Positions 1 through 12,136 of a stretch of DNA of 12,136 nt are shown in pieces. A model generated the notes under the pieces. It was not told where the DNA came from, did not search any database, and saw nothing but the letters and a program-made list of their open reading frames with translations. The translations under genes and the position numbers were made by a program. This stretch comes from a virus (taxonomy: Duplodnaviria > Heunggongvirae > Uroviricota > Caudoviricetes). The stretch is taken from positions 1-12,136 of IMG/VR virus record IMGVR_UViG_2711768053_000017, one strand, 5' to 3'. Within the stretch, counting starts at the first letter, position 1, and each line of letters begins with the position of its first letter.

Positions 1-252
1 TTACCATATTTCGTCACCCGCAGGGGTGGATTTACCCCAGACATCCTGCTCGCTAAGTTCCGCGGCGTTCATGTCACACTGTGCCAGCAGTTCATCAAGC
101 GAGTAGCGCCTGGAGATGGGTGTCAGAATCAGTTGGTTGTTGCTCACCTGCGCTTCCACGCTCTGCCCCGGCTGTAAGTTAAGTTCTTTCATTACGATAT
201 TGGGAATGACCATACCTGCACTGTTCCCCCATCTTTTTATGGTAATACGCAT
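1..252 (-). CDS. chpS: MazE/ChpS-family antitoxin (AbrB/SpoVT-fold), 83 aa; toxin partner expected left of the window
   Basis: Translation MRITIKRWGNSAGMVIPNIVMKELNLQPGQ...YSLDELLAQCD...GDEIW matches my recollection of E. coli ChpS and carries the MazE-family KRWGNS motif. AAGGAGG Shine-Dalgarno lies about 6 nt upstream of the ATG at 252; the GTG at 258 in the ORF track sits directly on the SD and is unlikely to be the start. Stop codon is at 1-3. Confidence 0.7.
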   Translation of the reverse strand: MRITIKRWGNSAGMVIPNIVMKELNLQPGQSVEAQVSNNQLILTPISRRYSLDELLAQCDMNAAELSEQDVWGKSTPAGDEIW

Positions 253-266
253 CTGCACCTCCTTAA

Positions 267-283
267 GTTATACAAAGTATAAC
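267..283 (-). promoter_or_regulatory. Perfect 17-bp palindrome GTTATAC-AAA-GTATAAC overlapping a TATACT -10-like hexamer just upstream of the antitoxin RBS; candidate autoregulatory operator/promoter of the TA operon
   Basis: Inverted repeat with 7-bp arms seen directly in the sequence; on the minus strand it reads GTTATACTTTGTATAAC and is followed by TTAAGGAGG and the ATG. MazE-family antitoxins autoregulate through palindromes at their promoters. Confidence 0.35.
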
Positions 284-479
284 TCACGGTGCTACAGGAA
301 ACGTTTTACCCCTGCGCATTTGTGAACGCCAGCAGAGTTTTTTATGCGTTAACAGATATGGAAAGCGGCTCGGAGAGAAAAGCAAAGGGTGAGGGAATTA
401 CAAAACAGAATGCGAGTCGTCTCGCAAAAAACAACGCCACCCGAAGGTGACATGAAGGAGACCGAGCACACTGGCCTCC

Positions 480-542
480 CTTCGATATATCAATTAGTTA
501 CATTAATACACATAGTCTTAACTAGGCTTATTTAGTCCTATT
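480..542. other. Candidate attL / integration junction: AT-rich segment immediately downstream of the integrase stop codon
   Basis: In P2-type phages att lies directly beyond the 3' end of int. The segment is AT-rich, and 525-533 (GGCTTATTT) is the reverse complement of AAATAAGCC, which resembles part of the P2 att core as I remember it. That recollection is uncertain and no second copy (attR) is available in the window. Confidence 0.2.
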
Positions 543-1538
543 TTATGGGCAATATCTGGACAACTCAGCCACAGGATTAAAGCGCACAGCATCCTGCAGA
601 TAATCCGGTGCAAAATGGGCATAAGTCATCGTCTGCTGAATAGTGCTATGCCCAAGTATTCTCTGCAAAGTGATGATATTCCCGCCATTAATCATGAAGT
701 GAGTGGCAAAGGTATGCCGTAAAACATGTATCGACTGCCCTTCAGGAAGATCGGGCCTCACCTTTCTGATAGCCGTTCTGACAGCGGCATAACTCGGATA
801 AATTAAACGACCAGTAGCCTTAGTCTTAATCATGCACTCCAGTTCTGACGATATAGGTATAACGCGACGCTTCCCATTTTTTGTTTCCATAAAAATGACT
901 TTGCCGCTAATAACATGCTCCCCCTTGATATTTGCAACTTCACTCCATCTTCCACCTGTTGCCAGACACAACAAGACGGCTTTTAATTCATCACCAGATA
1001 ACAACTCCAGTAATCGTGGAATATCTTCATGATACAAATAAGCCATTTCAGGCTGTTTGATATTAAGTTTTTTCACATCATGAAACGGATTAACCCCAGA
1101 ATATTCCTCTGCGTCAATTAGTTTTGTGAAGAAACCACTCATCATTGCGCAATAACGATTAACCGTGGATTGTTTTATTCCGCGGTTAAGCAACAATAAC
1201 CGATAATTAATTATGTTCTTACGAGTAAGTTGGTCACTGCGTGTAACATTAATACTTTCAAGATCACTAATGACCGCAGAAATACGCACTCGCTCCATCG
1301 CACCGTAAGGATGGTTTTTCCCATGGTATAGCCACCAACAATCCAGCAACTCCCTCAGCGAGCGCCGTTCTGTTGGCTTATCAACCCAGTCTTTGTCGTG
1401 GTAATGCTGCAATACATGACGCTCATACAAAACAGCCTCACCACGAGTATCAAATCGCCGCCTGAATCTCTTTCCTTCTGATCCAGCAGGCCGCACGTCC
1501 ACACAAAATTTGCCATTAGCGAGCTTCTTAATCGACAT
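543..1538 (-). CDS. int: Tyrosine recombinase / phage integrase, P2-type, 331 aa
   Basis: Translation MSIKKLANGKFCVDVRPAGSEGKRFRRRF...LRHTFATHFMINGGNIITLQRILGHSTIQQTMTYAHFAPDYLQDA closely parallels P2 Int (arm-binding N-terminus, R...HxxR...Y catalytic signature). GGAGGG SD lies 7 nt upstream of the ATG at 1538; the longer ORF from 1574 lacks an SD. Confidence 0.9.
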   Translation of the reverse strand: MSIKKLANGKFCVDVRPAGSEGKRFRRRFDTRGEAVLYERHVLQHYHDKDWVDKPTERRSLRELLDCWWLYHGKNHPYGAMERVRISAVISDLESINVTRSDQLTRKNIINYRLLLLNRGIKQSTVNRYCAMMSGFFTKLIDAEEYSGVNPFHDVKKLNIKQPEMAYLYHEDIPRLLELLSGDELKAVLLCLATGGRWSEVANIKGEHVISGKVIFMETKNGKRRVIPISSELECMIKTKATGRLIYPSYAAVRTAIRKVRPDLPEGQSIHVLRHTFATHFMINGGNIITLQRILGHSTIQQTMTYAHFAPDYLQDAVRFNPVAELSRYCP

Positions 1539-1604
1539 AAGGAAGCCCTCCAATGAAAACATCATCTTGATCACAGCTCTGGGAAATAAATGCCTGGTGA
1601 ACCG

Positions 1605-1898
1605 TTAACCAGTTTTCTTGCCGGAGCGGGATGATTCCGCTTCGCCTTGCCCAATGTGTGCGAGAGCCGGTACAACCTGCCCGGCCTTGGGTTCAACTTC
1701 ATCAAACAGAAACCAGTCGCGGTATTTAGAAAATCTCGGGTGCTTGAAAAGCTTGATAGTGATCTCGAGGCCAGGAAGGTTACGACCATACTCATAACTG
1801 GTCAGAGCAGAATAAGAAATTCCAATCATATCAGCGAATTCCCGCTGAGTGAGATCTTCAGATTTGCGCATGACGCGAATTTTTTGAGGAATGTCCAT
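1605..1898 (-). CDS. C: Immunity repressor, P2 C-type (HTH), 97 aa
   Basis: Translation MDIPQKIRVMRKSEDLTQREFADMIGISYSALTSYEYGRN...PALAHIGQGEAESSRSGKKTG parallels P2 C (..LMRKSE..L....G..Y..LS.YE.GR...PALAHFGQNETTSPHSGQKTG). AGGAG SD lies 8 nt upstream of the ATG at 1898; it sits downstream of int on the same strand as in P2. The ORF-track start at 1970 is an unsupported N-terminal extension. Confidence 0.85.
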   Translation of the reverse strand: MDIPQKIRVMRKSEDLTQREFADMIGISYSALTSYEYGRNLPGLEITIKLFKHPRFSKYRDWFLFDEVEPKAGQVVPALAHIGQGEAESSRSGKKTG

Positions 1899-1940
1899 TT
1901 GACAAACTCCTACATATGTGTAGATTAACACCACATATGA
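1899..1940 (+). promoter_or_regulatory. Candidate early rightward promoter (Pe-like) with two direct-repeat operator half-sites flanking the -10
   Basis: Consensus -35 TTGACA (1899-1904), 16-nt spacer, -10 TAGATT (1921-1926). 8-bp direct repeats TACATATG (1911-1918) and CACATATG (1932-1939), 21 bp apart, flank the -10. That is the operator layout described for P2 C repressor, which binds two direct repeats flanking the Pe -10. Confidence 0.5.
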
Positions 1941-2012
1941 ACAGCAAACAAATGTTCTAAGTGGTTCCAACTAGTGCCAATTAGAAAGAGCACCAATGGC
2001 GGAGGATATCAG

Positions 2013-2438
2013 ATGCAAGAAAGCACTCAAAACGCGCCTGAGTCACTTTGCGGAACACGATGCGATCGCCTGTCAGAAATGCCAGAAGGGGAGCATCAAA
2101 AAACAGAACGCAAAGCACGTGAACGTGAAGAAATTCGACTTTCAGAAAATCCCTCGCATCTCCTGTCAAAAGAAGGATTTGCGCTGTATATCGGCAAAAC
2201 AGTTAGCGCCATTGTGAGCATGGCTAAAGCAGGGAAATTGCCAGCCGTGTATATGGCAGACCCTCTTAGGCCAGGAGGAAACGCTGAACTCTACATCAAC
2301 AGAAAAGCGTGGGATGAAGCATGTGATCGCTTGATCGAAAACGCTCCGCAGGAATGGCATGACTGGGAAAACCGCCTGTTTTTATTTAAGCCGACACATA
2401 GCGAACGAAGCAGAACTAAAAAAGCGAGGGCCGCATGA
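2013..2438 (+). CDS. cox: Cox-like excisionase / transcriptional switch protein, 141 aa (alternative start 2079 gives 119 aa)
   Basis: The stretch LLSKEGFALYIGKTVSAIVSMAKAGKLPAVYMADPLRPGGNAELYINRKAW parallels P2 Cox (..YQEFAKLIGKSTGAVRRMIDKGKLPVIDMTDP...GEYWVYLPAWN). GGAGG SD at 2001-2005 is 7 nt before the ATG at 2013. It is first in the rightward operon, divergent from C. Roughly 35-50 N-terminal residues exceed P2 Cox, so the true start is uncertain. Confidence 0.7.
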   Translation: MQESTQNAPESLCGTRCDRLSEMPEGEHQKTERKAREREEIRLSENPSHLLSKEGFALYIGKTVSAIVSMAKAGKLPAVYMADPLRPGGNAELYINRKAWDEACDRLIENAPQEWHDWENRLFLFKPTHSERSRTKKARAA

Positions 2439-2476
2439 TTGCTTTATTGTTAACACATTATTTTCGTCGCCGTTAT

Positions 2477-2506
2477 TTCAAACACGGGCAGTTAGTGGGC
2501 TATATC
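2477..2506 (+). promoter_or_regulatory. Weak candidate sigma70 promoter ahead of the AT-rich cassette
   Basis: TTCAAA (2477-2482), 18-nt spacer, TATATC (2501-2506), about 37 bp upstream of the ATG at 2543. Match to consensus is only moderate. Confidence 0.25.
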
Positions 2507-2542
2507 ACACTGCCTGAATGAGTTAAAAGAGGTAACAGTAGA

Positions 2543-3151
2543 ATGAATCACAAAAATAAAGCGCTACTGGAACGACTGGAAACCCTGAAAAACGAAAAAC
2601 CACACCAGAAGCTTTTGCTGGTTTTTCCGGGCAAACCACAGGTTGAAATCAGCATTGACTACCACGAATTACACAGAACGTTCGCTGACCTGATGGCATT
2701 TAAATCAAAGCTTCAGAATGGCGAAGATTTGAAAGATGCCACCCTGCATCCCGACGATGAATACGGCCATTTTTGTCGGGATAACGCAAAGGGAACGTTC
2801 GGATTGGTTTTAGAACCAGTATGCGGCGTCATGCTCAGGTTTCCTGCCGAAGAAGCATTTGAACTTTATCGACAGATTATGGATGACGAATCAATGCTCA
2901 TTAAAGAAACAGCAGACTGTACATGCGCTAACACTAAACCGTACATTTATGCTGGCTCATACACTGATGAAGAACTGATAAATTTTTTGGAAACCGTTGT
3001 AGCAGAATTGAAATGCCGCAACAGGTTACCACTAAGACAACAACAATTACGGCATGAGTTAGAGGCCTACCAGGCTGAAATAGATAGAAACAATGAGTTT
3101 CTTAATTCAGTCGTGTATCGGCAGGATAAAAATCCCAAGCAGAATCCTTAA
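2543..3151 (+). CDS. Hypothetical protein, 202 aa, in AT-rich accessory cassette
   Basis: Long ORF with AAAGAGGT SD about 9 nt upstream of the ATG; no family recognised by eye. Noticeably AT-richer than the flanking phage backbone. Confidence 0.6.
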   Translation: MNHKNKALLERLETLKNEKPHQKLLLVFPGKPQVEISIDYHELHRTFADLMAFKSKLQNGEDLKDATLHPDDEYGHFCRDNAKGTFGLVLEPVCGVMLRFPAEEAFELYRQIMDDESMLIKETADCTCANTKPYIYAGSYTDEELINFLETVVAELKCRNRLPLRQQQLRHELEAYQAEIDRNNEFLNSVVYRQDKNPKQNP

Positions 3152-3569
3152 AGTGCAACAGACTTTCATCTTCATAACTTAAATCAGGCATTGGAGATGA
3201 GAGCTCGTGCTTATAAAGAATCTGGATACGCTCGGATACATGCTCTGGTATTACATATGCATTAATATCATTCCAGAGAACAATAAGTATGTCATGGAGA
3301 CACATATTTTTGGCATCAGACAATGAAACACCCTTTTGGGTGAAAAGATAATGATAAAGCACATTTTTTCCGAAGAGGACTACACACTTGGAATCAATAT
3401 TTCTTCGATACTCGACAAGTAGCAAATCCAATTTAAGGAGAATTAATGCTCGAGTAGCAACAAATGCTGAGTTGGCTGTTTCTTTATCCAGCACATCACG
3501 ATAGGATTCAGCAACTCGCTCGCAGTGTTTTTCAAAAATTCGCAGACACACAAAAGCATCTAATTCCAT
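3102..3569 (-). CDS. Hypothetical protein, 155 aa, convergent with and overlapping the 3' end of the 2543-3151 gene by 50 bp
   Basis: AAGGAG SD 6 nt upstream of the ATG at 3569 (MELDAFVCLRIFEKHCERV...). The ORF-track extension to 3722 is a Cys-rich low-complexity stretch without an SD, so the shorter start is preferred. No recognisable motif. Confidence 0.6.
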   Translation of the reverse strand: MELDAFVCLRIFEKHCERVAESYRDVLDKETANSAFVATRALILLKLDLLLVEYRRNIDSKCVVLFGKNVLYHYLFTQKGVSLSDAKNMCLHDILIVLWNDINAYVIPEHVSERIQILYKHELSSPMPDLSYEDESLLHFKDSAWDFYPADTRLN

Positions 3570-3710
3570 AACAACTCCTTTGTGGTTGGTTAAACACGCG
3601 CCCTTTACAGCCCCTTCAAGACTGCGGGCGGTGGAAAAATACCACAAAACCATGCGCCGGGCATGGCTAAAACCCGGCACAAATTCGCAACAGCAGCAGG
3701 ATATTTTTGT

Positions 3711-4061
3711 ATGAAGCAACAACGAAATTCTTCACAGCAACGCTTCCGCAACGGGGCGGAACGCCACGCTAACCGTTTCGCCACCAGTGCATCACGCAGC
3801 AGCTCTCGCTACAGCCTGAGCGAAACACACGCCACACCTGATGGCCATCCCGTAAAACAAATTGGTGAACACACCTGGCTGATTGAGAAGGCTGGAATCG
3901 TGGTCCACAAATGCCCGCGCAATCCGTTCACCGGAAACCGCATTTTTGAACTGATCAGCGGCGACAATCACCTCGGGCAGGATTTCACATTGTACGAAGC
4001 ACTACGCACGGTTGATCGTCTGCTTCGCGGGCAAAATTTTATTAAACAGACTGATTTATAA
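3711..4061 (+). CDS. Hypothetical protein, about 116 aa (start uncertain; 3663 is the alternative)
   Basis: ORF with a plausible globular C-terminal half (…WLIEKAGIVVHKCPRNPFTGNRIFELISGDNHLGQDFTLYEALRTVDRLL…), but the N-terminal part is S/R-rich and neither candidate ATG has a convincing SD. Confidence 0.4.
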   Translation: MKQQRNSSQQRFRNGAERHANRFATSASRSSSRYSLSETHATPDGHPVKQIGEHTWLIEKAGIVVHKCPRNPFTGNRIFELISGDNHLGQDFTLYEALRTVDRLLRGQNFIKQTDL

Positions 4062-4071
4062 CAGGTGCTTT

Positions 4072-4350
4072 ATGACTAAAGACCATACTCAAGGTGTATT
4101 TATCCGCTTTATTGATTCTCGCGGTGAACTGTTATTGCGTGCATCAGCTATTAATGGTGTAGCCCAGACAAAAGACGCAACCACTCATATTTATTTGGAC
4201 AGCACCGCACAACTGATCGTGGAGCTTCCGTACCAGACTGTACGTGAAGTCATTAGCGAAGCTGAAAAGGCACGTCAGATTAATAGCGATGAACCATACA
4301 TCGAAATTATCTGCATGGATTCAAAAACAGAAATCCAGAAGACAGATTAA
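4072..4350 (+). CDS. Hypothetical small protein, 92 aa
   Basis: ATG at 4072 preceded by AGGTG with a short spacer; it starts 10 nt after the previous stop, consistent with an operon. No family recognised. Confidence 0.5.
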   Translation: MTKDHTQGVFIRFIDSRGELLLRASAINGVAQTKDATTHIYLDSTAQLIVELPYQTVREVISEAEKARQINSDEPYIEIICMDSKTEIQKTD

Positions 4351-4361
4351 AGGGCGTTGTG

Positions 4362-4604
4362 ATGGATAAAGAATATAAAACTCTCGTCAATAAAGCACTT
4401 GAGCGTTTTCATTTTCGCTTAAGCGCATCAGGCACTCATGCTGAGCTCGCAGCCCGAGAGTCATTGACCAGGGCCATCAAGAGTATATACGACACGGCTT
4501 TTTACATTGACGATCCGGACGCACTCGACGAGCTTTCCATACTCGTCTGCGCCGCAGAAAACGGGCATCACATTGAACCGTATAACCTGGGGAGTATCGC
4601 GTGA
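4362..4604 (+). CDS. Hypothetical small protein, 80 aa
   Basis: ATG at 4362 with AAGGG about 7 nt upstream; tightly spaced after the previous gene. No family recognised. Confidence 0.5.
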   Translation: MDKEYKTLVNKALERFHFRLSASGTHAELAARESLTRAIKSIYDTAFYIDDPDALDELSILVCAAENGHHIEPYNLGSIA

Positions 4605-4714
4605 GCATATTTATTTCATGGCTTGTTCTGATTATTTCGGTGGCCTGCGCCATTGGGATTATGCGAATTATTCATTCAGTAAAAAAGATTGAACGCTTTT
4701 TCACTGGTGAATAA
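4601..4714 (+). CDS. Small hydrophobic single-TM peptide, 37 aa, not in the ORF track (below its length cutoff)
   Basis: GTG start at 4601 overlaps the upstream stop (GTGA) and is preceded by GGGGAG 6 nt upstream. Translation (M)SIFISWLVLIISVACAIGIMRIIHSVKKIERFFTGE is one predicted transmembrane helix followed by a basic tail. Confidence 0.4.
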   Translation: MSIFISWLVLIISVACAIGIMRIIHSVKKIERFFTGE

Positions 4715-4807
4715 CAGCACAAATAAAACACCAGATTAAATAAGAAAACGTGAAAACCATCCGTATTAACGGAGGTATTCGCACACGCAAATAACGGAGA
4801 TACAAAA

Positions 4808-5218
4808 ATGCACGCAAAAGAAGAAGGTATCATCAGAGCACTGAAAGAAATTTCAAAGACAGAAAACGAAGTAGCGAAAAAAGCCATAGCAAATAATCAT
4901 ATGGACGTCGCAACCCACACACTGATAGTCGCAAGAGTTACGGCAGAAGCAGCCGAAATTATCGCAAAACAGGATGCTGAACTGGCGGTTCTCAGAACAC
5001 AACCAATCACCGGGCTGGATTTGTCTAACACCGGACGCCTTATTTACACAATTGGCTCGGAGCTACAGCGATACACCATTATCGCCGGATTACAGGATAA
5101 ATACCTGATCACTCCTCACCCCATAAGGGAATCAGAAATTCTGACAAATCTCCGCCTGATAGAGCGCTCTCAAGTCGCATTCATTGATGACGCACAGCGC
5201 ACCGCATTTAACGCATAG
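4808..5218 (+). CDS. Hypothetical protein, 136 aa
   Basis: ATG with ACGGAG SD about 8 nt upstream; clean ORF with ordinary composition; no family recognised. Confidence 0.55.
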   Translation: MHAKEEGIIRALKEISKTENEVAKKAIANNHMDVATHTLIVARVTAEAAEIIAKQDAELAVLRTQPITGLDLSNTGRLIYTIGSELQRYTIIAGLQDKYLITPHPIRESEILTNLRLIERSQVAFIDDAQRTAFNA

Positions 5219-5236
5219 GGTTACTGGACAAAAAAA

Positions 5237-5245
5237 GGGGGGGGG
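5237..5245. repeat. Homopolymeric G9 tract (preceded by A7) 2 nt upstream of the start codon of the 5248 operon
   Basis: Counted directly: A at 5230-5236, G at 5237-5245, then CA and the ATG at 5248. The tract doubles as the only purine-rich SD-like element for this start codon. Confidence 0.9.
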
Positions 5246-5247
5246 CA

Positions 5248-5451
5248 ATGGCAATTAAGCGTTTTTCCGTCATTCGTTTCGCATCCAGAGGGCGTGAATA
5301 CGAAGTTGACGAACGGCTGATTAAAACGCTCGACCGTCACCGTTCGCAACCTGACGCGCATCACATTTATCTCACTGACGACACTTACTTCTGCGCCACC
5401 AACGTGGTGCAGGTGAACCTTATCCGACACGTACAGGAGTCACGCAGATGA
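5248..5451 (+). CDS. Hypothetical small protein, 67 aa; first gene of a translationally coupled four-gene operon
   Basis: ATG directly after the G9 tract; its stop overlaps the next start (ATGA). No family recognised. Confidence 0.5.
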   Translation: MAIKRFSVIRFASRGREYEVDERLIKTLDRHRSQPDAHHIYLTDDTYFCATNVVQVNLIRHVQESRR

Positions 5452-5666
5452 ACAGAAGGAGAATTACACGCAGACATCGCCGTACACGCCTGAGCTCCCC
5501 GCCAACACTAAAGGGACTCATTCAAAGCGAGATCGGTGATTTCTTCGCTGGATTTGGATCACCTGGCGAACCAGAAACACCTGAAGCGATGCAGCGCGAA
5601 CTCATGATGCGCATCGATAACGTTTTTGACTTTTTCCTGAATAACAAAAGAGAGCAACCGACATGA
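5448..5666 (+). CDS. Hypothetical small protein, 72 aa, with a strongly basic N-terminus (MNRRRITRRHRRTR)
   Basis: ATGA overlap with both the upstream and the downstream gene supports real, coupled translation. Confidence 0.5.
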   Translation: MNRRRITRRHRRTRLSSPPTLKGLIQSEIGDFFAGFGSPGEPETPEAMQRELMMRIDNVFDFFLNNKREQPT

Positions 5667-5875
5667 ACGAAAAGACCTGGTTTCGCGCATACATGTGGGC
5701 GCTGGTATGCGTCCTCGTCTCTATCATTCTGTATGCAGGACTACTCCCCCGAATGATCTCATCAGACAGCTCCTTCCTGGTATTGCTGGGCATTTTTGTT
5801 GCCTTGCTGTACCCGGCGGGCGTTGTCCGCTTTTTCAGTAACTACATCAAAGCAATTATGGAAACCAAACAATGA
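5663..5875 (+). CDS. Small integral membrane protein, 70 aa, two predicted TM helices
   Basis: Hydrophobic segments AYMWALVCVLVSIILYAGLL and FLVLLGIFVALLYPAGVV; ATGA overlaps on both sides. It sits immediately upstream of the SPFH gene, like the NfeD-type membrane partners of SPFH proteins. Confidence 0.6.
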   Translation: MNEKTWFRAYMWALVCVLVSIILYAGLLPRMISSDSSFLVLLGIFVALLYPAGVVRFFSNYIKAIMETKQ

Positions 5876-6696
5876 AAAAACTATTACCACTCATCCCTCT
5901 CCTGATGACCACACTTCTGGTTGGCTGTGACCGCGTGGAGCCGGGCAATGTAGGCATCAAAGTCAACAAACTGGGCGACGATAAAGGCGTCGGTGAAGTG
6001 GTTGGCGTTGGTCGCTACTGGACAGGCTGGAATACCGAGGTTTACATCTTCCCGACCTTCAAACAAATGAAGACCTACGATGAGCCGTTCAGCTTTCAGA
6101 TGAGTGACGGCACAACCATCGGCTATCACATCGGTGTAGCCTACAAGGTTGATCCATCCAAAGTTACTACAGTGTTTCAGACCTACCGCAAAGGCGTGGA
6201 CGACATTACCGACACTGACCTGCGCCAGAAGATCGCCGATGCACTCAACCGACTGGCCAGCAAAATGACCACCGATAAGTTTATCGACGGTGGTAAGTCT
6301 GAACTGCTGGATTCAGCACTTAAAGACATTCAGGCAGAAATGACACCTATCGGCATTCAGGTAATGAGCCTCTCTTATGTCGGTAAACCGGAATACCCGC
6401 CAACCGTGATCGACAGCATTAATGCCAAAGTCACAGCGAACCAGAAAACCCTGCAACGCGAACAGGAAGTCAAGCAACGCGAAGCAGAAGCCAACATGCT
6501 GCGCGCAGAAGCTGCCGGACAGGCTGATGCCATTCGCACAAAAGCCCAGGCTGAAGCCGACGCCATTCGTTTACGCGGTGAAGCTCTGCGCCAGAATCCC
6601 GGCGTTATGGAGCTGGAAGCAATCAACAAATGGAACGGCACGCTGCCGCAATACATGACCAGCAATACCGCTGTTCCGTTTGTTCCGGTGAAGTAA
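5872..6696 (+). CDS. SPFH/band-7 (HflC/stomatin/prohibitin-like) lipoprotein, 274 aa, predicted inner-membrane anchored
   Basis: N-terminal signal peptide with lipobox LLVGC followed by Asp at +2 (inner-membrane retention signal). The C-terminal Ala/Glu-rich coiled-coil (LRAEAAGQADAIRTKAQAEADAIRLRGEALRQNP...LEAINKW) resembles the HflC/HflK C-terminal region. ATGA-coupled to the upstream membrane protein. Confidence 0.65.
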   Translation: MKKLLPLIPLLMTTLLVGCDRVEPGNVGIKVNKLGDDKGVGEVVGVGRYWTGWNTEVYIFPTFKQMKTYDEPFSFQMSDGTTIGYHIGVAYKVDPSKVTTVFQTYRKGVDDITDTDLRQKIADALNRLASKMTTDKFIDGGKSELLDSALKDIQAEMTPIGIQVMSLSYVGKPEYPPTVIDSINAKVTANQKTLQREQEVKQREAEANMLRAEAAGQADAIRTKAQAEADAIRLRGEALRQNPGVMELEAINKWNGTLPQYMTSNTAVPFVPVK

Positions 6697-6702
6697 TTAA
6701 AC

Positions 6703-6748
6703 CCGGCCAGCGAAAATCGCTGGCCGGAGCAGTATCAGGATTTTTTTT
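6703..6748 (+). terminator. Candidate rho-independent terminator after the SPFH operon
   Basis: Perfect 10-bp stem CCGGCCAGCG / CGCTGGCCGG with a 5-nt loop (6703-6727), starting 7 nt after the stop codon, followed by a T8 run at 6741-6748. The T-run is 13 nt from the stem, which is non-canonical. Confidence 0.4.
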
Positions 6749-6775
6749 AGTATGCCGTTCTCACAAAAAAACCGC

Positions 6776-6886
6776 TTGCCATGCCGCAATCAGTCAGGTT
6801 ACATTTCCGCTGCACCTCATAAAACGGGTGCCGGGATTTCCACCCCGCTGACAACCAAAGCGCACAACCGCGCCAGCGGTTTTTTT
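6776..6886 (+). promoter_or_regulatory. Candidate promoter plus hairpin/T7 element: possible short transcript (about 75 nt) or attenuator-type leader
   Basis: TTGCCA (6776-6781), 18-nt spacer, TACATT (6800-6805); downstream a stem CCGCTG (6845-6850) / CAGCGG (6874-6879) enclosing an inner GCGC-N6-GCGC hairpin, followed directly by T7 (6880-6886). Confidence 0.25.
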
Positions 6887-7065
6887 GTGCGTACCGTATC
6901 GCCACGTCTTTTTCGCACACGAATTATGGTGGGGCGTATGGGGCCGACTTCGGTCGGGCCGGGTTCTTTGGTTGCCGGTTGTGGAAACCCTGTACGTCTC
7001 ACCACCCCGAGTTTTCCACCTCTGGATGGTGAGTTTTCAAAACTTACAACCAAAGAGGCCACACC

Positions 7066-7296
7066 ATGGCAAACCGCAAACAGCACCGCGCTATCGCGGA
7101 GCGTCGTCACATCCAGACTGAAATCGACCGCAGACTCACCCGCGCTGCACACATCGCCTTTATCATGCAATCCAACACATTGCACAGACTCAACAGCACT
7201 ATTTCAGCCGACTACTGCGCCGCTGTATTCAGCTATCTGGCGGAAGACCTCCTGTCTCTTCAGGACCTTATCCAGCAGCAAAACAAACTCCATTAA
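7066..7296 (+). CDS. Hypothetical small protein, 76 aa, basic N-terminus (MANRKQHRAIAERRHIQTEIDRR)
   Basis: AAAGAGG SD 7 nt upstream of the ATG; the sequence reads as a genuine protein, unlike the overlapping 206-aa ORF at 6752-7372. Confidence 0.55.
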   Translation: MANRKQHRAIAERRHIQTEIDRRLTRAAHIAFIMQSNTLHRLNSTISADYCAAVFSYLAEDLLSLQDLIQQQNKLH

Positions 7297-7368
7297 TTCC
7301 TGTTCCGGGCCTTTCCTGCACCTTGCGGCGGGAGGCCTTCGCACATCTGTAACAAGAGGATTGCCGCA

Positions 7369-7734
7369 ATGATTCTCGCCAACGACTTTCTTGAATACCT
7401 GCTCAATACAGAGCGTGATCTTGCCGTTCGCGTGCGTGACCGTTATGACATGTACCTGAAATCCCTGCCTGTACCGCAGCTCGCTGACGGAAAGATTGTT
7501 ATTGATGGTCGCTACATGATCGACAGCCATGAGGGAAATTACAGGCTTTACCGCATTGAAGGTGGCACCCCGTCCGTTATTGGCATTTACCAGCGCCCAT
7601 CCTCTGCAATCGTCGATGTGATTGCCGACAGCATCCGCATCACACATCGCCATGCCGACACAGAAGACACCGTGCTGGAAATTCAGCGTCTGGCTGCCGT
7701 TTGCCGTGACACCCTGAACGGTATGACGAAGTAA
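7369..7734 (+). CDS. Hypothetical protein, 121 aa, immediately upstream of gene A
   Basis: AAGAGGA SD 8 nt upstream of the ATG; its stop is 6 nt before the gene A start. No family recognised. Confidence 0.6.
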   Translation: MILANDFLEYLLNTERDLAVRVRDRYDMYLKSLPVPQLADGKIVIDGRYMIDSHEGNYRLYRIEGGTPSVIGIYQRPSSAIVDVIADSIRITHRHADTEDTVLEIQRLAAVCRDTLNGMTK

Positions 7735-7740
7735 ATCAGT

Positions 7741-10563
7741 ATGACGACAGAGTACATCAGGGACTGGCAACAACCACGCCACGCAGTAGGGCGTGAAGGT
7801 ACGGGGATCCCCGCACCTGAATCCGCGCTTTCCTCCTGGCTGGATGCCTACCGGGTAGAGAACGAGCGCCGCCAGGAAATGGCTGATGCGGCGTTCTCCG
7901 CCACGCCGCTGGGCAACCTGATTAATAAAAGCCTGGACGCACAGGAAAAACAGGACAAAACCATCACACTGGCAGGAGACGCCAGAAAACAGGCACGCGG
8001 CGCGCTGGATGAAGCCATGGCCTCGCTGCGCCTGCTGCCGTCCTATCTGCGCGATCCGCTTATTCGCCACCTCTCCTTCCTGCGCAAAAAACAGGAAGCC
8101 GATCGCCGGAAAGGCAAAAAGAGCTGGCAGGCGGAACGCTATGCACGCGGAACCCTGCGCAAAATATTCGAACGTCTGGATCGCACTGACGGACGCTGGC
8201 TGACACCGGGTTATCGCTCCCTTGCCGGACGCGAACGCCTGGACGATTTGCTGTACCTGCCGCAGCTCAACAAACACCAGATACAGACACTGGCCACCAT
8301 GACGGCGGCAATGTTCAGCAGCACCTTCGAGACACTCTGCGATGGCTTTGGCGCGACCGATGGTGAGCTGACCATGGAAGTGGCGCTGAAGACGTATCAG
8401 ATGCTGGCCCGAATGGCGTTACACCTGCACGCCATTCCGCCACATTATGACGCACTGACAACAGATAAAGACCGGAGGAACGAACCGGACACGGAGCTGC
8501 TGCCGGGCGCAATCCTTCGCCTGACCTGTGCGGAATGGTGGAAACGCAAACTGTGGCTGTTACGTTGCGAGTGGAGAGAAGAACAACTCCGCGCCGCCTG
8601 TCTGGTTTCCAGAAAAACATCACCCTATCTGAGCCAGGACGCGTTAAGCGAGTTTCGCGCACAGCGCGAGAAAACACGCGATTTTCTGAAAAGTTTCATG
8701 CTGGAAAACGAAGACGGGTTCACGATTGATCTCGAGACAGTGTATTACGCGGGAGTAAGTAACCCGGTTCACCGTAAGGCAGAAATGATGGCCACCATGA
8801 AGGGGCTGGAACTTCTGGCCGAAGCCCGTGGCGACAAAGCGGTGTTTCTGACTGTCACTACCCCTTCGAAGTACCACGCAACAACGGAGAACGGTCATCC
8901 GAACCCCAAATGGAACGGGGCCACCATGCGCGATTCCAGCGATTACCTGGTTAACACGTTTTTTAAGGCGGTCCGCAAAAAACTGAACCGCGACGGCCTG
9001 CGCTGGTATGGCATTCGCACGGTGGAGCCTCACCATGACGGCACCGTGCACTGGCACATGATGGTCTTTGCACATCCTGAAGAAATCGACAGCATCGTGG
9101 ACATCACCCGTGATATTGCCATTCGCGAAGACCGCCACGAGCTGGGCGATGACATAACTCCGCGTTTTAAGGCAGAGTACGTCGACGGTTCGAAAGGTAC
9201 GCCGACCAGCTACATCGCCACCTACATCGGAAAGAACCTGGACAGCCGCGCCGTGGATGGCATTGACCCGAAAACAGGCAAACCGCGCATCGACGACGAA
9301 TCAGGAAAGACGATGGCAGAAAGCGTGGAACGCGCCATCGGCTGGGCGCGCCTTCACCGGGTCCGCCAGTTCCAGTTCTTTGGCATCCCCTCCCGTCAGG
9401 TGTGGCGTGAACTGCGCCGCCTTGCCTGTCAGATGGCACGTAACCCACAGGGACCGCAACGTCTGGAAAATGACGCAATGGATGCGGTTCTTGCTGCCGC
9501 TGATGCCGGATGTTTTGCCACCTACATAGAGAAACAGGGCGGCGTGCTTGTTCCACGCAAAGACTACCTGATTCGCACCGCCTACGACCTCGCAGATGAG
9601 CTGAACGATTACGGCGAACAGAGCGTACAGATTTACGGGATCTGGTCACCACTCATCGGGGAATCCTCCCGTGTGTGCACGCATCCGGATAACTGGAAGC
9701 TGGTAAGACGCAAACCGGAAGCGGAAGACAGCGCCCGCGAAAATGGTTTTGACCTTCAGGGCGGCCCTGCCGCCCCTTGGACTCGTGGCAATAACTGTCC
9801 CCGTGTACAGGAAACGGACAACAACGGGACAGAACAGCCGGAAGAACGGCCAGCACCGTGGCCGCAGCTTCCTGACGGCGTTGATGTGGATGAATGGATG
9901 CGCTCACTGAAACGGCACGAACGCCGGGCGCTGATGCGTTCGCTTCGTGACAAACAGGCAAAAAACATCAGTGATGAAATGCAGAACTGGACACAGAGCC
10001 GCAAACAGCCACAGCCTTTGCCTGATAACCACGAGTTACTCGCTAAAGAATGGCGGGAGTCTGCTGAATCTCTCGGCCTGCATATCGGTGAACAGCAGAT
10101 GCAGCACCTGTTACGGGGCGGCAGTCTGTACGTTGACGGCAGCATCATTGCACCGCAGGGATTTGAAATTGTACGCAAACCGGATACCCGCCCGGACAGC
10201 CGAATCACGCAGCTCTGGCAACGCCTGAGCCGTAACCACGGCGTAAGCAGCACGGAGATCCGCCATAACCCGGTCGCCAGCTATCTGGAACAACTAGGGG
10301 CATCAGACCCCGAAGCCGCCGCACGCCTGGCATCCACACTTCAGCAGGACCAGAACACCATGAAAACCCCCGTTACCGTGCTTTCTGACATGCTGCGCGC
10401 CATCCGCGACGCAGAGCACGCACAGAGAATCAGTGAAACCACTGAACGCGCCCACCGCAAAGCAGACCTGCTGCGGGGTAGCCTGACCAGTGGAAACAAA
10501 AAACAGACAGAAACGGGATTCACAAATCCCGTAAATGAGCAAAAAACGTGCCATAAAACATGA
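7741..10563 (+). CDS. A: Rolling-circle replication initiator, P2 gpA family (HUH endonuclease), 940 aa
   Basis: HUH motif VEPHHDGTVHWHMMVF (H-W-H at 9049-9057) and twin catalytic tyrosines YIATYIGKN (Y codons at 9211 and 9223), as in P2 gpA (VEPHHDGTPHWHMM, YIAKYISKN). The start at 7741 has a weak SD and may be coupled to the upstream gene. Confidence 0.9.
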   Translation: MTTEYIRDWQQPRHAVGREGTGIPAPESALSSWLDAYRVENERRQEMADAAFSATPLGNLINKSLDAQEKQDKTITLAGDARKQARGALDEAMASLRLLPSYLRDPLIRHLSFLRKKQEADRRKGKKSWQAERYARGTLRKIFERLDRTDGRWLTPGYRSLAGRERLDDLLYLPQLNKHQIQTLATMTAAMFSSTFETLCDGFGATDGELTMEVALKTYQMLARMALHLHAIPPHYDALTTDKDRRNEPDTELLPGAILRLTCAEWWKRKLWLLRCEWREEQLRAACLVSRKTSPYLSQDALSEFRAQREKTRDFLKSFMLENEDGFTIDLETVYYAGVSNPVHRKAEMMATMKGLELLAEARGDKAVFLTVTTPSKYHATTENGHPNPKWNGATMRDSSDYLVNTFFKAVRKKLNRDGLRWYGIRTVEPHHDGTVHWHMMVFAHPEEIDSIVDITRDIAIREDRHELGDDITPRFKAEYVDGSKGTPTSYIATYIGKNLDSRAVDGIDPKTGKPRIDDESGKTMAESVERAIGWARLHRVRQFQFFGIPSRQVWRELRRLACQMARNPQGPQRLENDAMDAVLAAADAGCFATYIEKQGGVLVPRKDYLIRTAYDLADELNDYGEQSVQIYGIWSPLIGESSRVCTHPDNWKLVRRKPEAEDSARENGFDLQGGPAAPWTRGNNCPRVQETDNNGTEQPEERPAPWPQLPDGVDVDEWMRSLKRHERRALMRSLRDKQAKNISDEMQNWTQSRKQPQPLPDNHELLAKEWRESAESLGLHIGEQQMQHLLRGGSLYVDGSIIAPQGFEIVRKPDTRPDSRITQLWQRLSRNHGVSSTEIRHNPVASYLEQLGASDPEAAARLASTLQQDQNTMKTPVTVLSDMLRAIRDAEHAQRISETTERAHRKADLLRGSLTSGNKKQTETGFTNPVNEQKTCHKT
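10513..10532. promoter_or_regulatory. 20-bp palindrome ACGGGATT-CACA-AATCCCGT, copy 1, inside the last codons of gene A
   Basis: Perfect 8-bp inverted arms seen directly in the sequence; an identical-arm second copy lies 73 bp downstream. Confidence 0.5.
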
Positions 10564-10585
10564 AGTGCGCGCAAAACAGGCAAAA

Positions 10586-10605
10586 ACGGGATTTCAGAAT
10601 CCCGT
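10586..10605. promoter_or_regulatory. 20-bp palindrome ACGGGATT-TCAG-AATCCCGT, copy 2, 35 bp upstream of the parM-like start; candidate ParR operator / centromere-like site
   Basis: Identical 8-bp arms to copy 1 and similar flanks (aaACGGGATT....AATCCCGTaaa). Spacing of 73 bp is about 7 helical turns. A TAATTA -10-like hexamer (10613-10618) follows. Confidence 0.5.
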
Positions 10606-10639
10606 AAACGATTAATTAATCAACATAAGGAAAAGCGAC

Positions 10640-11599
10640 ATGAAAATTTGTATCGACGACGGCTCCACCAACATAAAGCTGGCATGGACTGAGAACGGCA
10701 AACGCCGCAACGCCATCAGCCCGAACAGCTTCAAGTCGGAATGGTCTGCGCCGTTCGGTGGCACGCAGCCCGCGAACTACATGCTTGATGGCGTGCGCTA
10801 TGGTTTTGATCCGGTCAGCGATCGCTTTGTCCAGACGACCGACACGCAATACCAGTACAGCGATGTGAATGTCATTGCCATTCATCATGCGCTGGTCAAA
10901 TCAGGCATCACGCCACAGGAGGTGGATGTGGTTGTCACCCTGCCACTGAGCGAGTATTTCGACACAAACGCACAGCCGGACATGGCCAACATCAACCGCA
11001 AAAAAGCGAACGTTATGCGCCCGGTGGAGTACCAGAACGGCGAGGCATTCACTATCCGTAACGTGCGGGTTATGCCTGAATCCATTCCGGCTGGCTTTAA
11101 AGCACTGGCTGACATGAGTCCGTTTGAATCCCTGCTGATTGTGGATTTGGGCGGAACCACGCTGGATGTGGCAAAGGTTCAGGGGCAACTGGCAGGTATC
11201 AGCCAGGTGTTTTGCGATCCACACGTAGGCGTTTCTCTGATGGCTGATGCCGTGCTGTCGGTGATGGCCACTAACGGTATGCGTACCAGTCACCACATCG
11301 CCAATACCATTATTGAGCACCGTCACGATGAAGCCTGGCTACGCCAGCACATTCACAATGACGCGCATTACAACAGCCTGATGGCGGTTATTCGTGAAAA
11401 GGAGGAGACACTGAAACAACGCGTGATCCGCGCGCTGGCGGGTTTTTCGGGTTACGGGCGGGTGATGGTTGTAGGTGGAGGAGCGGAGATTGTGGCACCC
11501 GCTATCCGCGAAGCCTGCGGAGTTAATGCGACTTTCATCGCGGACGGGGTGCCACAGTTTGCTCTGGTTAATGGGCTGTACGCAATGGATAAGGAGTAA
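10640..11599 (+). CDS. parM: ParM/StbA-family actin-like ATPase, 319 aa
   Basis: N-terminus MKICIDDGSTNIKLAW matches the ParM signature (R1 ParM MLVFIDDGSTNIKLQW). Further shared blocks: SPNSFK, YSDVNV..HHAL, TLPLSEYFD, NRKKAN, VMPESIPAGF, LLIVDLGGTTLDV, GVSL, VGGGAE, LVNGLY. Length matches ParM (about 320 aa). AAGGAAAAG SD upstream. Confidence 0.85.
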   Translation: MKICIDDGSTNIKLAWTENGKRRNAISPNSFKSEWSAPFGGTQPANYMLDGVRYGFDPVSDRFVQTTDTQYQYSDVNVIAIHHALVKSGITPQEVDVVVTLPLSEYFDTNAQPDMANINRKKANVMRPVEYQNGEAFTIRNVRVMPESIPAGFKALADMSPFESLLIVDLGGTTLDVAKVQGQLAGISQVFCDPHVGVSLMADAVLSVMATNGMRTSHHIANTIIEHRHDEAWLRQHIHNDAHYNSLMAVIREKEETLKQRVIRALAGFSGYGRVMVVGGGAEIVAPAIREACGVNATFIADGVPQFALVNGLYAMDKE

Positions 11600-11603
11600 A
11601 TCA

Positions 11604-11918
11604 ATGACGACACCAACCAGACGAATAAGTTTCTATCTGAAGCCCGCCGTCGTCAAGAGCGAACGGGAGGCGTGCAGTTACCTCGACAGCCTGCCAGCCT
11701 CCGAACGCAGCCGCGCACAACGCGCGGCTTTTCTGGCTGGACTGGCTCTTATAAAACGCGCCCCCGCGTTGGCGTATTCGCTGGCAGAATGGTCAGAAGA
11801 CGAAATACGAATGCCACCGCCACCAGTACAGCCTGAAAAACCGGCGCAACCAGCAGCAGACAGCGCCCCCCATATGCAGCAGGTGAAAAAGAATATTCAG
11901 GCGTTTTTCCCGAAGTGA
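11604..11918 (+). CDS. parR: ParR/StbB-like small DNA-binding protein (likely ribbon-helix-helix), 104 aa
   Basis: RRISFYLKPAVVKSEREACSYLDSLPASERSRAQRAAFLAGLALIKRAP parallels the R1 ParR N-terminus as recalled (RRTIAFKLNPDVNQTDKIVCDTLDSIPQGERSRLNRAALTAGLALYRQDP). AAGGAG SD 7 nt upstream, 4 nt after the parM stop. The ORF-track extension from 11475 overlaps parM in another frame and is rejected. Confidence 0.65.
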   Translation: MTTPTRRISFYLKPAVVKSEREACSYLDSLPASERSRAQRAAFLAGLALIKRAPALAYSLAEWSEDEIRMPPPPVQPEKPAQPAADSAPHMQQVKKNIQAFFPK

Positions 11919-11932
11919 AAACAGGAGTAACT

Positions 11933-12136
11933 ATGTCCACCATTACCAAAGAATGGTTACAACGTAAAATCACAGAGTTTAAATCGTGGCGCGAAGACAT
12001 CCCGTTCGGTCTTGATGAAGACGATCACAATATGTTAATCGCACTGGAAATTGCACTTGCATCACTGGAAGCAGAGCCAGTGGCATGGATGCACGCAAAT
12101 AATCCTATTGGAATACCGGCGATAACAAGAAGTAAA
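11933..12136 (+). CDS. Hypothetical protein, 5' part only (68 codons, runs off the window)
   Basis: CAGGAG SD 5 nt upstream of the ATG at 11933; open reading frame MSTITKEWLQRKITEFKSWREDIPFGLDEDDHNMLIALEIALASLEAEPVAWMHANNPIG continues to the window end. No confident family assignment. Confidence 0.45.
   Translation, partial: MSTITKEWLQRKITEFKSWREDIPFGLDEDDHNMLIALEIALASLEAEPVAWMHANNPIGIPAITRSK

Follow-up and report, generated by a model that had tools for sequence, protein, structure and literature searches.

What does a convergent pair of genes do in the otherwise rightward early operon of a P2-family prophage? The question is posed by positions 1 to 12,136 of IMG/VR virus record IMGVR_UViG_2711768053_000017, a stretch of 12,136 nucleotides (hereafter, the window) that is the left arm of a P88-like prophage (Xuanwuvirus, Peduoviridae, P2-family). 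A cassette of two open reading frames (ORFs), namely ORF202 (plus strand, 2543-3151; 202 aa, ATG start) and ORF155 (minus strand, 3102-3569), occupies positions 2543-3569, between cox and the rest of the early operon. ORF155 is the sole called minus-strand gene from cox to parM, and the strand break that an earlier, sequence-only reading of this DNA had pointed out is real. That reading went on to propose a candidate compact defence, exclusion or anti-defence module.

Here we report that ORF155 is a member of the ECs1072 family of phage-associated proteins. On sequence comparison, the real unit is an ECs1072-family gene together with the C-terminal domain (CTD) of ORF202, and not the whole of ORF202. 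The reading of this unit that we tentatively prefer, and which may well be wrong, is that ECs1072/CTD would be an accessory module combining an effector on the lysogeny strand with a self-antidote from the lytic operon, in an exclusion or abortive role.

ORF155 and the CTD of ORF202 form a recurrent convergent pair

Both ORFs are present as the sequence-only reading had described them. Their 3′ overlap is exactly 50 bp (3102-3151), and each has a good Shine-Dalgarno (SD) sequence, namely AAGAGG 9 nt before the ATG of ORF202 and AAGGAG 6 nt before the ATG of ORF155 at 3569. The minus-strand frame is open across 3102-3722; the 155-aa reading begins at ATG 3569, a start that is backed by the annotation of a 100%-identical copy by the Prokaryotic Genome Annotation Pipeline (PGAP) and by an invariant Met1 in the family alignment. 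Outside the overlap, both genes are under purifying selection, with ratios of nonsynonymous to synonymous polymorphism (pN/pS) of 0.16-0.52 (0.23 for ORF202), which indicates that both are truly coding.

ORF155 (3102-3569, minus strand) matches NCBIfam model NF033230 with 112.6 bits against a cut-off of 70 (E 1.5e-32), residues 8-154 aligning on profile positions 3-141 of 142, and PGAP likewise assigns identical or near-identical copies to the ECs1072 family. The family is small: a profile search of 1.84 billion representative proteins returned 36 clusters only, all of 130-200 aa.

Profile hidden Markov models (HMMs) of both families were run on six-frame translations of all the loci gathered (referred to below by L numbers). 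An opposite-strand, CTD-bearing ORF overlaps the 3′ end of the gene in 19 of the 20 distinct ECs1072-family genes from P2-like and lambdoid prophages, and 17/20 CTD genes have an ECs1072 partner in the reverse direction; close relationships among many of the surveyed loci mean that the 19/20 figure, like the covariation counts given below, overstates the number of independent events. In the window, the CTD HMM matches with E 2.6e-39 and the overlap is 50 bp, while overlap lengths in the survey are 23, 32, 50 (eight cases), 62, 77, 98, 101, 134, 143, 269 and 317 bp. An HMM made from the close partners only also detected the diverged ones (E 6e-18 to 1e-3), and one made from P2-like partners only gave an unannotated convergent ORF as its top match in the Sp4 prophage of E. 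coli O157:H7 Sakai (E 4e-6) and in another lambdoid (E 0.01). The association spans 30-45% protein identity, differing genomic positions and two phage families.

Partner ORFs are absent from the RefSeq annotation of Sakai Sp4 (L011; 19168-19677, plus strand) and of L003 (3948-4223, plus strand). The Sakai partner frame overlaps the ECs1072 gene by 317 bp, which makes its true end uncertain. At L013, from Brenneria rubrifaciens, the CTD partner gene is in two pieces (5437-5553 and 7622-7786) about 2 kb apart, presumably split by an insertion, and the ECs1072-family gene is intact; this suggests that the latter is tolerated without its partner.

The 50-bp overlap (3102-3151) is coding on both strands, the plus-strand product ending in NSVVYRQDKNPKQNP before its stop codon and the minus-strand product in FKDSAWDFYPADTRLN before its own. 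On the minus strand it encodes Trp145, which is invariant in the ECs1072 family. When the window is compared with the pair at L006, whose proteins are only 45% and 32% identical to those of the window, the overlap is the best-conserved DNA (86%, versus 62% and 49% in the flanks).

ORF202 looks like a recombinant of two cassettes

ORF202 (2543-3151, plus strand) is a chimeric early-operon gene, as identified by its ORF and SD, its N-domain family and its CTD HMM pairing. The N-domain, which spans about aa 1-115 (nt 2543-2890), is a member of a 135-aa family that is common in P88-like prophages; most ORF202 homologues, from E. coli, Salmonella, Citrobacter and Yersinia, are 135 aa long and match residues 1 to about 115 only. 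The CTD (about aa 128-202, nt 2924-3151) is a helical module of about 75 aa with the motif P-x-I-[FY]-A-G-S-x-x-D-E-E-L-x-x-F-L-E...N-E-F-[IL]-N-S-[IV]-V-Y-R-Q, and is the partner module of ECs1072-family genes. It is free-standing in CFIAFB20180511 (L003) and L017, as a 91-aa ORF that lacks annotation and starts with an ATG overlapping the stop codon of cox (ATGA), and it stands on a different N-domain in 153-aa proteins of Enterobacter, Salmonella and Citrobacter P2-like prophages. These arrangements indicate that the CTD is modular, occurring alone or joined to unrelated N-domains.

The boundaries that the sequence-only reading gave the unit, ORF202 plus ORF155, consequently have to be redrawn: only the CTD travels with the ECs1072-family gene, and the N-domain belongs to the common 135-aa family. 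The cassette in the window looks like a recombinant, in which the N-domain gene of a common cassette has been fused in frame to the CTD of an ECs1072 cassette.

The cassette is a rare and mobile insertion

Phage P88 has 37 bp between cox (1578-2003) and the DUF4761 gene that comes next. Since P88 cox directly precedes this gene, the cassette in the window is an insertion, and alignment with P88 gives its size as about 1.25 kb. The DUF4761-DUF4754 backbone is found in 1,347 of 5,426 complete E. coli genomes; at most 6 of these 1,347 contain any piece of the cassette, and a single one, strain E300010 (L001), contains it in full. P88 and more than 99% of E. coli P88-like prophages lack the cassette, in agreement with its proposed status as a horizontally acquired, non-core insertion after cox, and related prophages are accordingly polymorphic for its presence. 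Neither product is an ordinary conserved P2-family early protein: both are rare in E. coli and neither has a match in a phage record. The plasmid search gave one match, from Salmonella (46% identical), and the species-representative genome scan gave 2 loci only.

An alignment of the window with E300010 gives 99.5-100% identity for the cassette together with its right flank, and values that fall from 92% to 76% over the downstream genes. As for int, C and cox, those of the window (543-2438) have no detectable nucleotide similarity to L001 6859-8894 (E300010). To judge by these alignments, the cassette has a history separate from that of the immunity/integration module, as expected of classic mosaic exchange. 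In a comparison with E. albertii NBRC 107761 (L012), the flanks reach only 92-94% identity.

The cassette had also been described as AT-rich, and this holds for part of it. A real G+C trough covers ORF155 along with the 3′ third of ORF202. Of all 600-bp windows in the 12 kb, 2851-3450 has the lowest G+C, at 37.3% (mean 50.1%, standard deviation 5.8), and values are 37.8% for ORF155 and 39.1% for the 3′ part of ORF202, compared to 57% for gene A. The 5′ part of ORF202 is not low, since its first 348 nt have 44.5% G+C, which is not below int (43%) or cox (48%). At third codon positions, G+C is 31% in ORF155, 42-43% in int and cox, and 54-64% in the DUF4761 gene, the SPFH gene, gene A and parM.

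ECs1072-family genes run antisense to early lytic operons

In every context seen, the ECs1072-family gene is antisense to the early lytic operon that flanks it; in the window, ORF155 is on the minus strand and cox through gene A are on the plus strand. The positions themselves vary. The gene lies after cox in the window, E300010 and L014, between the early promoter Pe and cox in L005-L010 and L034, and deeper in the early operon in L026-L028. In lambdoids, it is found between cro/cII and the replication genes (Sp4 and L031) or beside kilR, antisense within the PL operon (L029). At L029/L030, a same-strand truncated 96-aa paralogue stands in tandem after the ECs1072-family gene, with kilR alongside.

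In L006, a strong Pe (11/12 matches) lies directly 5′ of the partner, and a Pc-like promoter stands face to face with it, aimed at C. Because this Pe is upstream of the partner, early transcripts have to traverse the ECs1072 gene in full, in antisense, on their way to cox.

A conserved element precedes ORF155 and many unrelated cargo genes

About 70-100 nt 5′ of ORF155, at 3636-3680 on the minus strand, is an element that we refer to as the dock. It comprises two inverted repeats that overlap one another (GCCGGG...CCCGGC and CCATG...CATGG), with TTTTG and TGGTATTTT after them, and reads, on the minus strand, GCCGGG-TTTTAG-CCATG-CCCGGC-G-CATGG-TTTTG-TGGTATTTT, where TGGTATTTT (3644-3636) resembles an extended -10 element. 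The same element is found ahead of ECs1072 genes in diverged P2-like prophages. A search with the pattern GCCAYGYCCGGCGCRTGGT gave matches in 95 IMG/VR stretches, in which the dock is on the same strand as int (78/78), opposite to gpA (66/66) and to cox (45/45), and between int and gpA (54/54). The U-tract of most copies holds TGnTAnnnT, the shape of an extended -10 promoter, 70-100 nt 5′ of the cargo ORFs. By its sequence the dock may be a promoter/operator or an insulating terminator.

Read as minus-strand RNA, the dock forms a GC-rich stem of 10 bp with a U-tract after it (-31.9 kcal/mol, z-score -3.3). Its two stems are mutually exclusive and have one covarying pair each (UA to CG at 16:15 and GC to AU at 22:6), and uncompensated combinations are almost absent although the pattern GCCAYGYCCGGCGCRTGGT permitted them; symmetric operator half-sites would give the same covariation as RNA stems. 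An H-type pseudoknot of the two overlapping stems was considered and is sterically unlikely, as it would need a 1-nt loop to cross a 6-bp stem; alternative hairpins or a protein operator are possible. Downstream of 3102, no terminator-like site was found on the minus strand, the sole strong hairpin with a U-tract being the one upstream of ORF155.

More than 20 unrelated families of small ORFs stand behind the dock in P2-like prophages, and ECs1072 is the commonest of them. The cargo includes a homologue of the superinfection-exclusion protein SieB (PF14163, 5e-26), a zinc-ribbon protein, a GhoS-like protein just over the Pfam cut-off, and many unknowns. The SieB and GhoS-like genes are at about 2998-3558 of L086 and about 1387-1668 of L076, respectively; most other cargo families (59-160 aa) are without any annotation. 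The P88-like slot with the same right flank holds an unrelated 117-aa/155-aa convergent pair in A36 and a 151-aa/87-aa pair in G1/2. The int-gpA interval has been described as a minor defence hotspot of P2-like phages (PMC13586616).

ORF155 is predicted to be a small soluble helical protein

The AlphaFold2 (AF2) model of ORF155 is all-alpha and confident (predicted local distance difference test score, pLDDT, 90.9; predicted template modelling score, pTM, 0.88), and the protein is acidic (isoelectric point, pI, 5.3) and predicted to be soluble. Conservation in the ECs1072 family falls on a buried amphipathic helix (R-A-x-x-I-x-K-L-D-x-L-L), on a Gly and on a C-terminal D-x-E-W-D-P that contains the invariant Trp; no catalytic-looking constellation of residues was found among them. 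A HEPN-like Rx4-6H motif is ruled out, as K/R68 and H73 vary across the family. So is a membrane protein: the most hydrophobic segment (maximum 19-residue Kyte-Doolittle value, KD19, 1.81; residues 34-52) is a helix with conserved Arg, Lys and Asp that is buried in the confident globular model.

Searches with Pfam, PHROGs, NCBIfam and PADLOC on both proteins returned only NF033230 and a weak match to phrog_5286, which has no assigned function. Pfam, including SieB PF14163, gave no match for ORF155 or ORF202; in PADLOC-DB 2.0, ORF202 has zero matches and the one match of ORF155, to Cas7f (E 0.008, 13.6 bits), is noise. ORF155 also has no match among PDB sequences and no structural match in fold searches, Foldseek giving nothing significant (AcrF3 chains at E 6-7 and HEPN chains at E ~3-8 only).

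A tentative model and its alternatives

In the model we tentatively favour, the two genes would make up an accessory module of the moron type that is docked within the early operon of this P88-like P2-family prophage. ORF155, on the lysogenic strand together with C and int, would most likely be expressed from its own promoter in 3636-3680 while Pe is repressed. Being small, acidic and helical, without conserved catalytic residues, its product probably acts by binding a target and not by catalysis, and would exclude or abort superinfecting phages. The candidate Pe of the window (TTGACA-16-TAGATT, 1899-1926, plus strand) comes from a consensus scan only, with 10/12 matches; its transcript would cover cox, ORF202, the antisense of ORF155 and the DUF4761 gene, and continue to gene A. 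The CTD is on the lytic strand and is often translationally coupled to cox; because it lies downstream of Pe and cox, it would be made only upon the phage's own infection or induction, and would then neutralise ORF155 by direct binding. Transcription from Pe, running antisense through ORF155 and pairing with its 3′ end, would also silence ORF155, and the phage's own lytic cycle would thereby be spared.

The expression timing, the antagonism and the exclusion phenotype of the pair are what we infer for this model, and we infer the defence or exclusion role from the antisense orientation, the shared dock and the presence of SieB as an alternative cargo. Genes antisense to lytic genes are characteristic of morons expressed in lysogens, and antisense RNAs of the OOP and STnc6030 types act at such overlaps (PMC7067206). 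In a growth-transition microarray study of strain Sakai, for which no inducing treatment is mentioned, the ECs1072 probe was called differentially expressed (-2.13) (PMC2241611).

A number of results weigh against this model. Neither protein has functional homology in PADLOC, Pfam, PHROGs or fold searches, and tblastn of both against 50,697 phage records (sequenced phage genomes) gave no match. A generic sigma-70 (-35/-10) scan of the minus strand over 3570-3720 found no promoter, and the hairpin and U-tract of the dock could instead be an insulating terminator. Part of the C-terminal conservation of the partner, i.e. its D/N-P tail, is forced by dual coding opposite the invariant Trp-Asp of ORF155. 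The AF2 model of ORF202 is of low confidence (pLDDT 56; helices at 142-159 and 162-196). Finally, the ECs1072-family gene at L029/L030 (lambdoid, 4001-4968) has no convergent partner, and the CTD genes of L059 and L072 face other small antisense ORFs.

A broader version of the model seems to us rather unlikely. It would have P2-like prophages carry an unrecognised antisense cargo dock, made of a hairpin and a promoter, that drives accessory genes on the lysogeny strand, with SieB, the GhoS-like protein and many unknowns among their products. ECs1072/CTD would then be a new two-component exclusion system with an orphan fold, in which an opposite-strand antidote overlaps the 3′ end of the effector and self-immunity operates at the levels of both protein and antisense RNA; the system would also occur in lambdoids at the OOP position.

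The pair might alternatively tune the choice between lysis and lysogeny, the leftward unit damping or delaying cox and the replication genes, which it meets head-on, by interference and 3′ antisense pairing. Its transcript may even run into C and int, like those of 186 pE and lambda pRE, with the two proteins as auxiliary regulators. The position of the pair fits this proposal, as it always adjoins the switch, whether it follows cox or cro-cII or stands between Pe and cox, and in Sakai Sp4 and L031 the gene is in the cII-O interval, in the place of lambda OOP, which overlaps the upstream gene at its 3′ end (OOP: PMC7067206). So does the architecture: no minus-strand terminator was found after ORF155, so that the transcript could go on antisense via ORF202 and cox toward C and int, and inverted repeats cover the -35 region, as they do at activator-dependent establishment promoters. 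A switch component would not be expected, however, to be dispensable and as rare as this module, which P88 and more than 99% of P88-like prophages do without; a dock that serves many unrelated cargos, SieB among them, suits accessory genes better than parts of a switch; and RNA effects alone are insufficient given the purifying selection on both proteins. We therefore regard tuning as unlikely. An accessory module is favoured over a core regulator because the unit is rare, mobile and AT-rich and shares its dock with SieB, and the data fit the former much better than the latter.

Convergent 3′ overlaps had been taken as typical of toxin-antitoxin (TA) or restriction-type cassettes. This is unsupported here, as neither Pfam nor PADLOC nor structure matched the two proteins to a toxin, an antitoxin, a restriction enzyme or a known defence protein. 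In classical type II TA pairs, the two genes run in the same direction as one operon. It is improbable that the pair is an addiction module that stabilises the prophage, with ORF155 as toxin and ORF202/CTD as antitoxin or the reverse. Two small, tightly linked, co-inherited, mobile and AT-rich genes would suit such a module, as would the GhoS-like antitoxin homologue among the other dock cargos, but the genes converge instead of forming a co-directional autoregulated operon, resemble no toxin or antitoxin family in Pfam, PADLOC or by fold, and would leave the putative antitoxin repressed behind Pe in the lysogen, which is the wrong logic for addiction. The Brenneria locus, with its split partner and intact ECs1072 gene, further argues that ORF155 is not obviously lethal alone. 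Just as improbable, in our estimate, is an anti-defence (counter-immunity) module, in which a small acidic helical protein inhibits a host defence and its partner is a second inhibitor or a regulator. ORF155 has the traits for this (small, acidic with a pI of 5.3, helical, no enzymatic motif, a fold with no known relative), and these are common among anti-defence proteins. Genes of this kind are needed when infection starts, though, and are normally oriented with the early operon, whereas ORF155 is always antisense, and known anti-CRISPR and anti-restriction structures gave no significant match (AcrF3 at E 6-7 only). Last, and very improbably, the two may be functionally unrelated neighbours, ORF202 being a plain early gene and the overlap a product of genome compaction at a recombination-prone slot; such a coincidence would have to recur in 19/20 cases (17/20 reversed) over divergent proteins, positions, overlaps of 23-317 bp and two phage families.

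Relation to known systems

The namesake of NF033230, ECs1072/ECs_5703 of E. coli O157:H7 Sakai Sp4, resembles the locus in the window in that it is antisense within the early operon, between cII-like and O-like genes, and is overlapped by a convergent ORF with the CTD motif. The family name comes without a function, however, and the annotations consulted mention neither the partner nor the overlap nor the orientation rule; in Sakai, the partner ORF is itself unannotated.

SieB is an exclusion gene expressed by the prophage from the early region, against which the phage brings its own antidote, Esc (P22, lambda and Rac). A SieB homologue (PF14163) occupies the identical dock, behind the same element, in another P2-like prophage, and one lambdoid ECs1072 homologue (L029) adjoins kilR, beside which sieB lies in Rac. 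In contrast, the two systems have no sequence similarity, ORF155 is predicted to be soluble whereas SieB is a membrane protein, and Esc is an internal in-frame product of sieB instead of a convergent gene. The proposed logic, a prophage defence near the immunity region with built-in self-sparing, is also that of BstA/aba. BstA is a large protein that binds DNA, and the DNA element aba lies within its gene, bstA. The bstA locus is mentioned in PMC7067206.

Morons, as they are described in the papers that cite the original work, are autonomous accessory units of temperate phages (Juhala 2000 and Cumby 2012, as cited in 10.1101/2024.10.15.618418 and PMC7067206). The cassette is like them in lying between genes that are adjacent in its relative P88, in its deviant base composition, in being antisense to lytic genes and perhaps in having a promoter of its own. 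It differs in that its two genes are on opposite strands and one depends on the early promoter of the phage, that no terminator was found after its cargo gene, and that the conserved hairpin is upstream and not downstream.

Convergent transcription beside the immunity switch, with a 3′ overlap of tens of nucleotides, is shared with lambda OOP/cII, P2 Pe/Pc and 186 pR/pL plus pE, and lambdoid ECs1072 members lie exactly in the cII-O interval, as OOP does (PMC7067206). Unlike OOP and the P2 and 186 promoters, the antisense unit described here encodes a conserved 150-aa protein under purifying selection, and is optional and horizontally exchanged. The likeness to type II TA systems is confined to the cassette being a compact mobile pair of small genes; the cassette is convergent, lacks homology to known toxins or antitoxins and has an inverted regulatory logic.

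Other features of the prophage arm

The cassette (2543-3569, both strands) is preceded in the window by the integrase gene int (543-1574, minus strand), the helix-turn-helix repressor gene C (about 1608-1898, minus strand) and cox (PF10743; 1974-2438, plus strand). It is followed, all on the plus strand, by the DUF4761 gene (3711-4061), the DUF4754 gene (4359-4604), an SPFH lipoprotein gene (5872-6696), the isrK and C4 RNAs (6812-7009), gene A (7741-10563) and parM (10640-11599). The SPFH/band-7 lipoprotein gene within the early operon (5872-6696, plus strand; phrog_200, with weak HflC/HflK similarity) is kept in some P88-like relatives and swapped out in others.

Rfam models identify a tandem of the Hfq-binding RNA isrK (64 bits; 6812-6886, plus strand) and the C4 antisense RNA (80.5 bits; 6922-7009, plus strand). 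Just 3′ of them is a 76-aa ORF (7066-7296, plus strand), the counterpart of which is annotated as 'derepression protein' in relatives. Together, the three look like an antirepressor unit under antisense-RNA control, resembling immI of P1/P7, within a P2-family prophage. Directly 3′ of gene A are a ParM-type actin-like segregation gene (10640-11599) and a ParR-like 'plasmid partitioning/stability' gene (about 11604-11918), both on the plus strand, which hints at a plasmid-like maintenance option in an integrated P2-like prophage.

At the left edge, an ORF on the minus strand (1-258) has the look of a MazE/ChpS-type antitoxin, as judged by eye and with no family-library search. The prophage attachment site is between this ORF and int; related E. 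coli prophages sit elsewhere, by dmsA or selD.

Implications

Whatever the function of the pair, the pattern GCCAYGYCCGGCGCRTGGT is a handle by which uncharacterised cargo genes of the lysogenic strand, which are presumably expressed in lysogens, can be collected by the dozen from the int-gpA interval of P2-like prophages. In addition, the annotation is corrected for the partner ORF, which several RefSeq records, among them those of Sakai Sp4 and CFIAFB20180511, leave out. If the model is true, ECs1072/CTD would add a compact anti-phage or exclusion system with an orphan fold, in an unusual design that places the effector on the lysogenic strand and the antidote on the lytic strand and joins them by their 3′ overlap. 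It would account for how a prophage can arm its host and yet leave its own induction unharmed.

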